Source of the DNA: a virus
Taxonomy: Duplodnaviria > Heunggongvirae > Uroviricota > Caudoviricetes
Virus record (IMG/VR): IMGVR_UViG_647533158_000006
Direction: 5' to 3' (one strand)
DNA length: 49,773 bases
In this document: positions 13,146 to 14,794 of the stretch, piece after piece
How the letters are laid out: each line of letters starts with the position of its first letter
How positions within the stretch are numbered: the first letter of the stretch is position 1
The notes under the pieces: model-generated
What the model was told of the DNA's origin: nothing
What the model saw: only the letters and a program-made list of their open reading frames with translations
Database searches by the model: none
Translations under genes and position numbers: made by a program

Positions 13146-13288
13146 CATCGCTGGCGGTACTTGTCTTTAGGAATTTCTAGACGATAATATCCACCATCTT
13201 TCTTAAAAATACGTTTACCACCACGAGTAATGTACGGGGTAAACACAATCACAACTTCTTCGCCTTTGGCGTTCATTTCTGTAGTCAT
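13146..13288 (-). CDS. Small ORF (47 aa) downstream of the HTH-ImmA gene
   Basis: Hand translation MTTEMNAKGEEVVIVFTPYITRGGKRIFKKDGGYYRLEIPKDKYRQR; AGGA about 8 nt upstream; below the track cutoff. Confidence 0.3.
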
Positions 13289-13449
13289 GGTTTGATTTCC
13301 TGTAAATCTCACCTTTACAAGTCATCACCAAAACGCCTACACTAAAGGTGTGAATCATTAAGTAGGCGGGTAGTGATACTCTAAGAGCGGTGAGTAAGCT
13401 CTCAGAATCGTTATCCTAATCGGCAAAAGAGTTGGCGCTCTTTTGCCGA

Positions 13450-14379
13450 TTAAATGATCTGGTTTTCACGAAATTTCCTCCACAAGATCCCTGCGACTTC
13501 ATGGCTAACTTTGAAGTTAACAGCAATTTCTTTTGGGGTTTTGATCATCTCTTTCTCTTGCGGATCAACCAGAAACCAAGCGGCAAATTCGTTTGCTTGC
13601 CATTCCGCGTCCTCTCTAAAATCATGATTGGAGGATGTCTGTGAGAAAGCAAATTCAGGCGTAACATCCGCATGAAGAATTAAATGCCCTAATTCGTGAG
13701 CCAGAGTAAAACGATCACGTGGTACGCCGTTTGCTGCATTAATGTAAGTGTCTTTACGTACGTATAACTCGCCTATTGCAGGTCTTGCCTTAGCATACTC
13801 ATGCGGCATTTCATGAATTTCACAAATTTCCATCGAAATTGCACCGGTATCGTTTAGCCTGTCTAATAACCTAACAATGTCAATTGAAGGATCCGATGTC
13901 GCTGGGAGATACTGCCTTGCTTTTTGGCGCGCGGCGGCAGCAACTTTCCATATGGTTTGAGGAGCAATAAAATTTACTTTATTACACAGTAATCGCTTTT
14001 GTTTCATCTTTGACTTTGACCTTACATTTTTTTTTATCTTCTCAAGCCAGTCATTTGCTTCACTTTCTGGAAGCTCTTTATACTTACGCGCAAAGGTGAC
14101 GAACAATTCTCGGTGCTTGTCAGAAGTATTCTTAAAATCTTCTTTATGAACTGGTTGAGATACGTCCACAAGACATTGAAAATCATCTCTGCTGATGACT
14201 GTGTCTGCATAAACGTTCATGAATTTGTCTACAAAATCAGCAGATATTGAACGCTTACCTAATTCAATTGCAGAAAGTTGAGCGACACTCACACCAAGTT
14301 TTTCTGCCATGTCTTTCAATATCTGATCTTTATCAATACGGATTTTCCGTAAGAACCTACCAAGAGCTGTAACTTGCAT
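13450..14379 (-). CDS. Fusion regulator: N-terminal XRE helix-turn-helix plus C-terminal ImmA/IrrE-type metallopeptidase
   Basis: HTH signature near the N-terminus (DMAEKLGVSVAQLSAIELGKR); HEXXH zinc motif HELGHLILH with downstream EWQANEFAAWFL typical of COG2856; AT-rich codon usage. Confidence 0.8.
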   Translation of the reverse strand: MQVTALGRFLRKIRIDKDQILKDMAEKLGVSVAQLSAIELGKRSISADFVDKFMNVYADTVISRDDFQCLVDVSQPVHKEDFKNTSDKHRELFVTFARKYKELPESEANDWLEKIKKNVRSKSKMKQKRLLCNKVNFIAPQTIWKVAAAARQKARQYLPATSDPSIDIVRLLDRLNDTGAISMEICEIHEMPHEYAKARPAIGELYVRKDTYINAANGVPRDRFTLAHELGHLILHADVTPEFAFSQTSSNHDFREDAEWQANEFAAWFLVDPQEKEMIKTPKEIAVNFKVSHEVAGILWRKFRENQII

Positions 14380-14794
14380 TGTGACCTCCTAATCAAGGGA
14401 GGTAGTCTTTTACTACCATTGAAGATACATTAAACCATTATCAGATAATTAGTCAACAAAAATTGTAGAATGGTTTTTGTGTGACCTGATTTTGGTTAAA
14501 GAGAACATCGCATGTTATTGCAATCTATTAATTTAAAAATTCTAGATTTATCGATAGGTTGCGAGCGAATTTTGGTGCAAAGATAAAATGTTGGAAACAG
14601 CTAAAAGGTTAAGTAGAATGGCTGCGGGTGCTTGAGGCTGTCTGCCTCGGGCATGCCACTGTAAGGCAGACAGAGAAAAGCCCCAGTTAACATTACGCGT
14701 CCGGCAAGACGCTTAACATTAATCTGAGGCCAATTTCATGCTTTGCACATGTAGGTTAGCCTCTTACGCGCCGGAAGGCAAGGAGAAGCAGGCT

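Follow-up and report, generated by a model that had tools for sequence, protein, structure and literature searches.

Pairs of a cleavable repressor and a metallopeptidase are a known DNA-damage sensing route of mobile elements and immune operons. In the ImmR/ImmA systems of Bacillus subtilis (ICEBs1, phage phi105), a repressor with an N-terminal XRE helix-turn-helix (HTH) domain and a C-terminal extension is followed, in one operon on a mobile element, by a single-domain M78 peptidase of ~170-185 aa. The excision genes under ImmR/ImmA control are those of the element itself, and the ICEBs1 operon ends with int. In Deinococcus, the M78 peptidase IrrE (PprI), a chromosomal protein of three domains that regulates a DNA-repair regulon, inactivates the XRE repressor DdrO by cutting its C-terminal dimerisation region. 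CapP, the peptidase of the CapH/CapP immune operons, has a second, GAF-like domain with ssDNA lying between the two domains, and activation by ssDNA has precedent (PMC13228613, PMC10904395); CapH is cut at F82|R83, in the first helix of its C-terminal domain (10.1101/2022.04.27.489752). The phage-associated RosmerTA systems, which could release a toxic partner, join an HTH to an ImmA-type peptidase in RmrA, a naturally fused protein of about 370-400 aa that has a further region at its C-terminus, and their RmrT toxins are larger and vary highly around this constant antitoxin (PMC10440598). Finally, in the 'three-component TAS' of Makarova, Wolf and Koonin (2009), a mobile pair of Xre and Zn-protease was proposed to control a third, toxic component, the third components being RelE and PIN toxins beside fused proteins (PMC2701414).

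The locus studied here is a 1.3-kb cassette that adjoins hok in an accessory slot of a lambdoid prophage, within a window (the whole stretch of DNA that was analysed) of 49,773 nucleotides (Table 1). The preliminary description of this DNA had called the gene AT-rich and placed it at an accessory site, in the slot beside hok where K-12 Qin has relBE. GC content is indeed 0.35-0.42 across the region and 0.46-0.52 in the flanks. The locus does form an accessory insert next to hok, and the statement about the slot holds because the gene order in K-12 Qin is relB-relE-hokD-rem. The cassette is mobile, occupies accessory slots, and was found in E. coli prophages, gut Firmicutes elements and phage satellites. 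Whereas ImmR/ImmA serves the element that carries it, the pair here is an accessory insert in a prophage with an immunity region of its own. Unlike CapH/CapP, it is not set in an immune operon: the 47-aa ORF is the only downstream gene, the cassette stops at its terminator, and the next gene (12727-13140, + strand) is convergent to it. It also differs from DdrO/IrrE in being a mobile three-gene cassette.

Table 1. Features of the cassette and its surroundings (positions in the window; - and +, strand;., either strand).
Feature	Position	Strand	Basis or detail
Intrinsic terminator closing the cassette	13110-13127	-	Terminator scan
47-aa basic all-beta protein	13145-13288	-	AGGA 9 nt upstream of ATG
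Structured leader of small ORF	13299-13408	-	Fold z = -7.9
H4 hairpin	13299-13321	-	Loop GGUGAGA 13307-13313, complementary to H2 loop
Antisense sigma-70-type promoter	13314-13343	+	Promoter scan; -35 TTTACA 13314-13319, 18-nt spacer, -10 TACACT 13338-13343
H3 long hairpin	about 13330-13376	-	Leader fold
Predicted cis-antisense RNA, ~105 nt	13350-13455	+	Inferred start site to H1; fold z = -4.9
H2 hairpin	13380-13406	-	Loop UUACUCACC at 13389-13397
H1, perfect 15-bp inverted repeat	13417-13452	.	Overlaps peptidase stop codon
309-aa ORF, XRE-HTH and M78 (ImmA/IrrE-type) metallopeptidase in one frame	13450-14379	-	ORF list, Pfam
Ancestral M78 metallopeptidase gene, 185 aa	13450-14007	-	45 homologues
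Third-ligand Glu of EWQAN	13603-13605	-	Homologue alignment
HELGH zinc motif	13684-13698	-	Homologue alignment
Peptidase start ATG	14005-14007	-	Begins 185-aa protein in A8 relatives
Latent TAA stop of HTH frame	14022-14024	-	Used in A8 relatives
Ancestral HTH repressor gene, 118 aa in relatives	14022-14379	-	66 homologues, AF2, PADLOC capH
A9 run joining both genes (T9 on +)	14027-14035	-	Alignment with CFSAN029787
Near-invariant F96-A97-R98 in repressor C-terminal helices	14086-14094	-	Homologue alignment
5'-UTR hairpins of HTH gene	14384-14417	-	Sequence
Putative operon promoter	14427-14456	-	Read from sequence; -35 TTGACT 14451-14456, weak -10 TAATGT 14427-14432
Palindrome TTATCTGATAA, possible operator	14438-14448	-	Between -35 and -10
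sok/hok-leader RNA region	14626-14800		Rfam 15 match
hok	14795-14947		Pfam HOK_GEF match

The preliminary description had reported a 309-aa ORF with an N-terminal HTH and a C-terminal HEXXH peptidase, and the domain search that it proposed confirmed both (HTH_3, aa 10-57, 30.7 bits, cut-off 23 bits; Peptidase_M78, aa 212-296, 52.4 bits, cut-off 22 bits). The single-polypeptide fusion, which it had singled out as the notable feature, did not stand, as it rests on one extra A in one draft assembly. Relatives at 98-99% identity are split: they have A8, and their HTH protein ends in ...EKIKKM-stop at 118 aa. The A9/A8 change is the sole frame-changing difference from these relatives. The junction is A8 in the related loci L001, L094, L095 and L002 and A5GG in L006, and the exact fused protein is recorded only in scaffold GG749133.1 of GCA_000163155.1, which is the window itself. 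All 45 peptidase homologues (about 172-195 aa, aligned to no more than the C-terminal 60% of the ORF) and all 66 HTH homologues (104-152 aa) are stand-alone proteins, so that a natural fusion of the RmrA, IrrE or Rv2515c type occurs in 0 of 111. Across 176 related loci, the HTH gene lies directly upstream of the peptidase gene in 172, and one other locus, L143, has both domains in one frame. By these comparisons, the two-gene arrangement is the ancestral, near-universal state and the fusion is derived. Since all homologues stand alone and the fusion depends on A9, we regard a split pair, ImmR/ImmA-like (CapH/CapP-like), as the natural unit.

We consider it very unlikely that the 309-aa single chain is a real, selected innovation, a sensor that would cleave itself or a sister chain, free the HTH and turn on the small ORF. 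In its favour, the assembled reading frame is unbroken, the RmrA profiles align with aa 8-281, other clades commonly have HTH-COG2856 fusions (PMC2701414), and L143 is fused without any homopolymer, which indicates that such a fusion can be viable. Against this, the chain depends on A9 where all close relatives have A8, it is known from a single draft assembly, both of its halves stand alone in every homologue, and its nine-residue bridge (NVRSKSK-M) is translated intergenic spacer. The A9 run reflects either an error in sequencing the homopolymer or a frameshift of recent origin; the single chain is not a sensor by design. Programmed slippage was rejected as well: a +1 slip at the A-tract fits the peptidase frame in three enterobacterial relatives, yet it is not conserved, because Pantoea has an interrupted tract (A5GG) and Aeromonas a different frame. 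One homopolymer base in a draft genome can therefore give rise to a striking 'fusion protein', and this calls for caution.

For the repressor, AF2 was run on the HTH part alone, since MAFFT alignment of the fused protein set the N-terminal halves of the peptidases against the HTH region. The model (pLDDT 88.5) has five N-terminal helices, forming the XRE domain, and C-terminal helices at residues 87-100 and 105-115, and DdrO is among its fold matches. The HTH_3 match, the model and the PADLOC capH profile (2.4e-5 over aa 4-118) all describe an XRE-type repressor with an N-terminal HTH and a C-terminal helical extension, as in ImmR. The near-invariant F-A-R lies in the same place as the F|R at which CapH is cut.

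The peptidase is a member of the M78 / ImmA-IrrE family (COG2856), as shown by its PF06114 match and by a HEXXH motif with a downstream acidic ligand. Its N-terminus is conserved, and the H, E, H and EWQA columns are invariant among 30 homologues. The two domains are of the kind found where a protease cleaves an HTH repressor, as had been proposed. The nearest solved relative by sequence is CapP (7t5t, E = 8e-4), and the PADLOC capP profile gave 7e-13, with the match confined to profile positions 56-113 of 242. In contrast to the two-domain CapP, the peptidase here has one domain (185 aa, compared to the 291-aa 7t5t chain), ends 77 residues past HEXXH and contains no GAF domain. Since the ssDNA groove of CapP lies between its two domains, the signal may differ from that of CapP. 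The best PADLOC matches were to RosmerTA; however, the pair here is split and short, and the RmrA matches reach about position 265 of 360-400, where the protein ends. Adjacency in 172 of the 176 loci and the conserved FAR in the partner are the observations that bear on the putative cleavage of the neighbouring repressor by the peptidase.

The downstream ORF, for which a ribosome-binding site of its own had correctly been noted, is entered in RefSeq as a hypothetical protein of 47 aa. It encodes a hydrophilic, basic protein (pI 9.8, GRAVY -0.88; AF2 pLDDT 83) from a family of 31-47 aa, with 1363 clusters at 90% identity and 1184 at 50%. A homologue is found just downstream of the M78 gene in 116 of the 176 loci, from Proteobacteria to Clostridia, while no small ORF was detectable in the other 60, and the gap between the two genes is always at least 95 nt. 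Searches begun from the mini-protein recover the same trio, and synonymous to nonsynonymous codon changes in the small ORF number 17:4, 13:4 and 19:6. On this codon and linkage evidence, the small ORF is a genuine gene, under selection and linked to the repressor/protease pair. It is duplicated in L002-L005, where the second copy has an antisense promoter and terminator of its own. No match over threshold was obtained for the mini-protein in Pfam, NCBIfam or PADLOC, and weak matches to DUF6296 and Arm-DNA-bind_4 were not accepted. PHROGs gave only phrog_4533, a marginal match for 3 of 47 members. A literature search on the trio and the RefSeq accessions found no description. In contrast to the variable RmrT toxins of RosmerTA, the partner here is a constant family behind a spacer with predicted RNA gating, and PADLOC assigned no family to either the 47-aa ORF or its 137-aa neighbour.

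In type I loci such as SymE/SymR and hok/sok, a short cis-antisense RNA, made from a promoter of its own and ended by its own terminator, overlaps the leader of a small ORF. In the repZ-Inc RNA activator pseudoknot of IncI-alpha/IncB plasmids, a hairpin loop pairs in cis beside the ribosome-binding site and is also the antisense target. The leader, antisense RNA and loop predicted for the spacer here would match these layouts. Transcription of symE is also under a cleavable repressor, although that repressor is LexA, whereas the one here is ImmR-like with its own protease. The mini-protein, unlike the classical type I toxins, which are hydrophobic membrane peptides, is not a membrane peptide, and its sequence is unrelated to SymE, Hok and RalR. 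ICEBs1 is not known to carry a structured leader, antisense promoter or mini-protein like those of the cassette.

Rfam 15, in which sok (14626-14800) was the sole family found, gave no match at E ≤ 1 for the spacer (13289-13449), whose antisense promoter and structured leader had been missed in the preliminary description. In the leader, the 3' arm of H4 overlaps the Shine-Dalgarno sequence of the small ORF (AGGA, 13298-13301). RNAalifold, run on an unfitted MAFFT alignment, picks a long-range helix between the H2 loop and GGUGAG. In a covariation test based on 14 related sequences, this pairing was 90%, compared to 78% in shuffles (0 of 500 as high) and 25-47% when slid. The helix shows compensatory changes, its G-U pairs fit the sense strand, and the MFE folds of 14 relatives show the same leader architecture. 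The best complement lies 70-80 nt upstream in 26 of 63 spacers, and the complementarity between loop and downstream sequence, pooled over all clades, was not significant (5.72 vs 5.39); of these tests, the enrichment in position and the covariation in 14 sequences hold.

The -35 and -10 elements of the antisense promoter correspond, in reverse complement, to two conserved blocks, TTGTAAA and AGTGTA. At the sequence level, promoter scores of at least 9.5 were found in 63 of 89 unique spacers in the antisense direction and in 11 in the sense direction (13.6% of shuffles), and scores of at least 10 in 34 and 1, respectively; the promoter in the window scores only 9/12. A hairpin with a T-run at the M78 stop is in antisense orientation in 42 of 88 loci, compared to 4 of 88 in sense orientation, and H1 of the window has no canonical T-run in either direction. 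A sense promoter in the spacer was rejected, as sense scores equal those of shuffles. On the sense strand, TTGAC... and TA...C are separated by only 9-11 nt, so that these blocks can be understood solely as an antisense promoter. The idea that the antisense transcript codes for a protein was also rejected, since the ORFs of that strand are not conserved. The spacer holds a conserved antisense promoter and terminator and a covarying helix. From the positions of the promoter and the terminator or hairpin we infer a cis-antisense RNA, in which H2 would recur as its complement, with loop GGUGAGUAA.

Upstream of the HTH gene, the putative operon promoter fell under threshold in a consensus promoter scan, and TTCTACAA-N5-6-GTTGAC is kept at this place in five relatives. 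The second of the two 5'-UTR hairpins (14384-14403) pairs the AGGAGG Shine-Dalgarno sequence with CCTCC, and equivalent hairpins are present in L002, L006, L009, L017 and L029.

Our preferred reading, to which we give a little better than an even chance, is that the cassette is a cleavable-repressor switch whose mini-protein output is gated by an antisense RNA as in type I toxins. The XRE repressor (normally 118 aa) would bind the operon promoter through its N-terminal HTH, and the M78 metallopeptidase (normally 185 aa, of a minimal ImmA type) would cut it upon a stress signal, by analogy DNA damage or ssDNA, probably at the conserved FAR of the first C-terminal helix or close to it. A leader of ~160 nt would be read through from the same operon and be opposed by the ~105-nt antisense RNA, the predicted promoter of which overlaps the 5' end of the small gene. 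The H2 loop would pair in cis beside the ribosome-binding site, and the same loop would be the natural target of the antisense RNA. With the repressor intact, there would be little operon mRNA, and excess antisense RNA would keep the small ORF untranslated; with the repressor cleaved, operon transcripts would outnumber the antisense RNA and the 47-aa basic beta-sheet protein would be made as the output. Given the predicted gating, the mini-protein most likely inhibits growth or does other harm when its expression leaks, and its hydrophilic character would make it an atypical type I toxin. The earlier suggestion of a signal-responsive switch that controls a small effector still describes the locus best in general terms, because the small ORF is real, selected and tied to the pair; the fusion, unique and dependent on A9, is not the feature of note. 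Less probably than not, the trio may be a hybrid module not recognised before, with more than a thousand sequence families across bacterial phyla, in which a non-membrane mini-toxin or harmful effector is gated by an antisense RNA and activator pseudoknot, with transcription under a protease-cleavable ImmR-type repressor, so that DNA damage or phage would give a thresholded, possibly abortive response.

Other roles for the mini-protein have to be weighed against this switch. It could be an accessory of the switch that serves the peptidase as cofactor or inhibitor, or that binds DNA as a small Cro-, Xis- or antirepressor-like protein of the mobile element, with antisense gating as for phage antirepressors; the P22 sar and P1 c4 RNAs gate antirepressors. 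The mini-protein is basic, has been kept with this peptidase clade across phyla rather than swapped, and matches weakly the beta-sheet arm-binding domain of integrases (E = 0.03). In gut Firmicutes, moreover, the trio adjoins a recombinase or integrase and occupies the place of the element's immunity module. In the window and in L002, however, the cassette lies far from the integrase in a prophage that carries immunity genes of its own, the Pfam arm-binding match is far under the cut-off, and the model has no structural similarity to known DNA-binding folds. We regard an accessory role as unlikely. That the mini-protein is the toxin of a type II system, RosmerTA-like or of the Xre-COG2856 three-component kind, bound by the HTH and/or the peptidase and freed by proteolysis of the antitoxin, seems to us rather improbable. 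PADLOC RmrA profiles match (up to 5e-13), as does, weakly, the NCBIfam spr1629 antitoxin; Makarova et al. predicted three-component systems around COG2856-Xre; and a mobile cassette in accessory slots would fit as well. The C-terminal third of RmrA is absent, though, no RmrT-like partner was found by PADLOC in either neighbouring ORF, and the small protein is constant where RosmerTA toxins vary (PMC10440598). The spacer of at least 95 nt with its antisense promoter leaves no translational coupling, and the small ORF and antisense unit are also found without an adjacent pair of their own.

The antisense promoter might, alternatively, act on the repressor-protease operon, through convergent transcription or as antisense to the 3' end of the peptidase gene, the small ORF not being its target and the helix being incidental. 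It does fire towards the peptidase gene, and since H1 of the window lacks the form of a canonical terminator, transcripts could continue past it. We hold this to be highly improbable. The antisense terminator at the peptidase stop in 42 of 88 loci would confine the RNA to the spacer, the helix involves sequence beside the Shine-Dalgarno of the small ORF and has G-U pairs that fit the sense strand, and the duplicated small ORF of L002 keeps its antisense unit with no peptidase gene directly upstream.

After the 'third component' prediction of 2009, a constant third component now comes into view in one large clade. Neither the mini-protein family nor the antisense RNA is among the three-component systems described in that work (PMC2701414). 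The family has no Pfam or NCBIfam annotation, and Rfam contains neither the leader nor the predicted antisense RNA. If the proposed switch is true, protein-level sensing of a signal would be joined to RNA-level threshold gating in one 1.3-kb cassette, which would make it a compact, testable system.

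The locus was in part as a preliminary description had portrayed it. The 309-aa ORF matched Pfam HTH_3 over residues 10–57 (30.7 bits, cut-off 23) and Peptidase_M78 over residues 212–296 (52.4 bits, cut-off 22). The expected HEXXH motif was present as HELGH, with an EWQAN block downstream, and these are invariant among relatives. The region is indeed AT-rich, with a GC content of 0.35–0.42 compared to 0.46–0.52 in the flanking DNA. The stated position beside hok, where K-12 Qin carries relBE, was also correct, since Qin has the order relB-relE-hokD-rem at the equivalent site. 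Replication and nin-type genes lie on one side of the insert and hok-rem-Q on the other. Present in 3 of 5426 complete E. coli genomes, the locus is a rare accessory insert of a lambdoid prophage.

On the low-coordinate side the cassette is bounded by a convergent 137-aa ORF (12727–13140, + strand), which has no Pfam family and matches PHROGs 12350, 1380 and 9263, all of unknown function, with E-values as low as 2e-34. Just 3' of hok there is a 9-nt tandem repeat (TTGTATTTG x 6.2, 95% match, window 15118–15173), the product of which is an ORF with LLYLLY repeats (15082–15213). Directly after the hok stop (14931–15036, + strand), the Rfam models of the Hfq-binding sRNAs istR (E = 0.013), isrK and rsmX matched weakly, below threshold; this may be just terminator-like structure.

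Features of the cassette and its surroundings (window coordinates)
Feature	Position	Strand	Basis or remark
309-aa ORF (HTH + M78)	13450–14379	−	ORF list
47-aa ORF	13145–13288	−	ORF list/sequence
hok	14795–14947		Pfam
sok/hok-leader RNA	14626–14800		Rfam
Antisense promoter	−35 13314–13319, −10 13338–13343	+	conserved blocks; also in promoter scan
Predicted cis-antisense RNA, ~105 nt	~13350–13455	+	promoter and terminator positions
H1 hairpin, perfect 15-bp repeat	13417–13452		at peptidase stop
Long-range helix	H2 loop CUCACC 13389–13397 with GGUGAG 13308–13313	sense leader	RNAalifold

The single-polypeptide fusion, the headline feature of the preliminary description, is a one-base homopolymer difference. 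The fused ORF is intact in the window, but as a feature of the family the fusion did not stand. In RefSeq, three complete genomes (98% identity) have two genes, one for an HTH protein of 118 aa and one for an ImmA/IrrE peptidase of 185 aa. Alignment revealed a sole frame-changing difference, A9 in the window (T9, 14027–14035 on the + strand) compared to A8 in CFSAN029787, a genome with split genes. In the A8 allele the HTH protein terminates ...EKIKKM-stop, and the peptidase ATG follows 14 nt later (window 14005–14007). A8 was also found in two independent read-set assemblies (99% identity) and one 83%-identity relative; the Pantoea junction has A5GG in its place. A search of 5.8 billion proteins with the 309-aa query gave 45 relatives, all stand-alone peptidases (~172–195 aa) spanning just its C-terminal 60%, and the N-terminal 116-aa query gave 66 relatives, every one stand-alone (104–152 aa). 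The only record of the exact fused protein is the window itself, scaffold GG749133.1 in the draft assembly GCA_000163155.1. The HTH gene lay directly upstream of the peptidase gene in 172 of 176 related loci. Apart from the window, the two shared one frame only in locus L143, on a GC-rich metagenomic contig, where the fusion ORF (2401–3372) has a linker of ~30 residues and no homopolymer at the junction; this may be a genuine natural fusion. The A8 relatives, the stand-alone homologues and this one other fusion among 176 loci together show that the fused state of the window is derived and essentially unique.

A9 is either a sequencing error, homopolymer miscalls being a known weakness of some older sequencing platforms, or a real recent frameshift. 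Even if real, the fusion would be unremarkable, as fused HTH-COG2856 proteins are common in other clades (PMC2701414). The junctions of the window (14022–14035), L001, L002 and L006 were compared in this respect. Transcriptional slippage could give a little fused protein from split alleles, because in three enterobacterial relatives a +1 A slip at A8 would join the peptidase frame to the HTH ORF. The slip tract is interrupted in Pantoea, and the frame is different in Aeromonas. The headline feature aside, the earlier observation is real.

Comparison across loci indicates that the small ORF is a real gene and a constant partner of the pair. The order HTH (117–118 aa), M78 (184–185 aa), 160-nt gap and 42–47-aa ORF was found in Enterobacteriaceae prophages, in Pantoea and in an Aeromonas P4-like satellite. 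The 176 loci, taken from viral contigs and from sets with one genome per species, span Clostridia, a spirochaete and Alpha-, Beta- and Gammaproteobacteria; in 116, a profile search found a homologue of the small protein just downstream of the peptidase gene, on the same strand. The reverse search, from small-protein clusters, led back to this trio, here adjoining a recombinase in abundant elements of gut Firmicutes. Synonymous and nonsynonymous codon changes in the small ORF numbered 17:4, 13:4 and 19:6 against three relatives. The mini-protein family comprises 1363 clusters at 90% identity (1184 at 50%), and its members, of 31–121 aa, are all unnamed or 'hypothetical'. No match above threshold was found in Pfam or NCBIfam, and PHROGs gave only phrog_4533, for 3 of 47 members. 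The 47-aa protein is basic and hydrophilic (pI 9.8, GRAVY −0.88). Its AF2 model is a confident small beta-meander (pLDDT 83), for which structure comparison gave no informative structural neighbour. The reverse search also gave a variant arrangement by an integrase, on human gut contigs (L186–L190), in which an HTH protein of 200 aa and a protein of 128 aa are separated by 213 nt from a mini-protein of 43 aa, with DUF2188 after it. The 128-aa protein has no Pfam match, and may replace the peptidase or be its degenerate form.

The peptidase stop is never <95 nt (median 179) from the conserved part of the small protein. In the gammaproteobacterial group this spacer contains two conserved blocks, TTGT(A/C)AAGG and (A)GTGTA. 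A sense promoter formed by the blocks was ruled out, as they have no sensible spacing on that strand. Read on the opposite strand, they make a sigma-70 promoter with 16–18-nt spacing, as TTTACA or TTGACA followed by TACACT, TACAAT, TATAAT or TATACT. Its −35 lies 10–70 nt upstream of the conserved coding part, over the 5' end of the small ORF. Of 89 unique spacers from all clades, 63 had an antisense-strand promoter score of ≥9.5 and 11 a sense-strand one (shuffles, 13.6%); at ≥10 the counts were 34 and 1, respectively. Of 88 loci, 42 had a hairpin with a T-run by the peptidase stop in antisense orientation, and 4 had one in sense orientation. From the antisense promoters and antisense-oriented terminators together, we predict a discrete cis-antisense RNA of ~105 nt, and sense transcripts of the HTH-peptidase operon that continue into the small ORF. 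The 3' end of the antisense RNA is less certain in the window, as its H1 is without a canonical T-run. The antisense strand of the spacer has no conserved ORF, and Rfam gave no match for the spacer RNA. The spacer looks to be a regulatory RNA region rather than a sense promoter. In L002–L005, a second mini-protein copy, a 45-aa paralogue, lies ~400 nt upstream of the HTH gene (~4065–4217 in L002). As this copy has its own antisense promoter (TTTACA-16-TACTAT) and antisense terminator (A-run and hairpin), it suggests that small ORF and antisense RNA form a module in themselves. No description of the mini-protein family, leader or antisense promoter was found in the libraries or papers searched.

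Folding compared to shuffles gave z = −7.9 for the sense leader and z = −4.9 for the predicted antisense RNA. Single-sequence folds of 14 relatives shared one architecture: H1 at the stop codon, H2 (a hairpin with a 9–11-nt loop), H3 (a long hairpin) and H4, the last hairpin, whose 3' arm overlaps the Shine-Dalgarno of the small ORF. From MAFFT alignments unfitted to any structure, RNAalifold picked one consensus helix, between the H2 loop and GGUGAG just 3' of UUGUAAA. Compensatory pairs include CUCGCC/GGCGGG, GCUACC/GGUAGC, CUGCC/GGCAG, UAUGCC/GGCAUA and UCUGCC/GGCAGA. In this helix 90% of cells were paired; shuffles gave 78%, and none of 500 was as high. There were 14 double changes compared to 5.3, and pairing fell to 25–47% with the partner slid. 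In other clades, whose sequences differ, the 10 nt following the −35 complement had their best pairing partner 70–80 nt upstream in 26 of 63 spacers, with a pooled complementarity length not above shuffles. Being perfectly complementary to H2, the antisense RNA would compete, via its loop, with the cis pairing of the H2 loop. This proposed logic is that of IncI-alpha/IncB repZ-Inc RNA, and it is reminiscent of type I toxin-antitoxin loci with a 5' leader, symE/symR being one.

For the protein pair, the top PADLOC matches were profiles of the RosmerTA antitoxin RmrA (to 5e-13), the CBASS-type protease capP (7e-13) and the repressor capH (2.4e-5, over the entire HTH protein); the nearest solved structure by sequence was CapP 7t5t. 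The peptidase consists of one minimal domain, of ImmA size, which ends 77 residues past HEXXH, and is therefore without the second domain of CapP and IrrE. An AF2 model of the HTH partner (pLDDT 88.5) shows an XRE domain of five helices and two further helices at the C-terminus, and DdrO was among its fold matches. The first C-terminal helix contains F96-A97-R98, nearly invariant across the HTH family. As CapH is cut by its own peptidase between F82 and R83, likewise in the helix that opens the C-terminal domain (10.1101/2022.04.27.489752), FAR is a reasonable candidate for the cleavage site of the HTH repressor. CapP and PprI are activated by ssDNA (PMC13228613; PMC10904395). With neither the second CapP domain nor an attached immune operon, and with the defining features of RosmerTA also missing, the locus is a member of neither system, yet it may work similarly. 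The cassette is best filed with the ImmR/ImmA kind, as a variant of it.

Two hairpins occupy the 5' UTR of the HTH gene (14384–14417, − strand), the second pairing the AGGAGG Shine-Dalgarno with CCTCC. Relatives as remote as Aeromonas and Rheinheimera have counterparts of these hairpins, so translation of the repressor itself may be structured too. At the DNA level the H4 stem (13299–13321) forms the palindrome TGTAAA-N7-TTTACA, which covers the antisense −35. At 14438–14469 there is a half-site like it, TTGTAGA (complement of TCTACAA), which five relatives conserve just upstream of the HTH-promoter −35. The repressor might bind both the HTH and the antisense promoters.

The best-supported reading, from sequence comparison, is a switch in which a cleavable repressor would control the operon, the mini-protein would be its single output, and an RNA threshold would hold that output back. 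The signal-responsive switch for a small effector suggested earlier is therefore upheld in part: the constant small ORF and the predicted antisense gating sharpen it comparatively, and the fusion drops out. A type II or RosmerTA-like protein-protein system is improbable, as the locus has no RmrA C-terminal region and no RmrT. The mini-protein could instead assist the switch, as a cofactor or a DNA-binding accessory, which we consider unlikely, and there is only a slim chance that antisense control is directed at the operon rather than at the small ORF. As for the cleavable-repressor switch with its RNA threshold, such gating in several layers is usual for products that do harm when they leak, be they toxins or antirepressor-type regulators.
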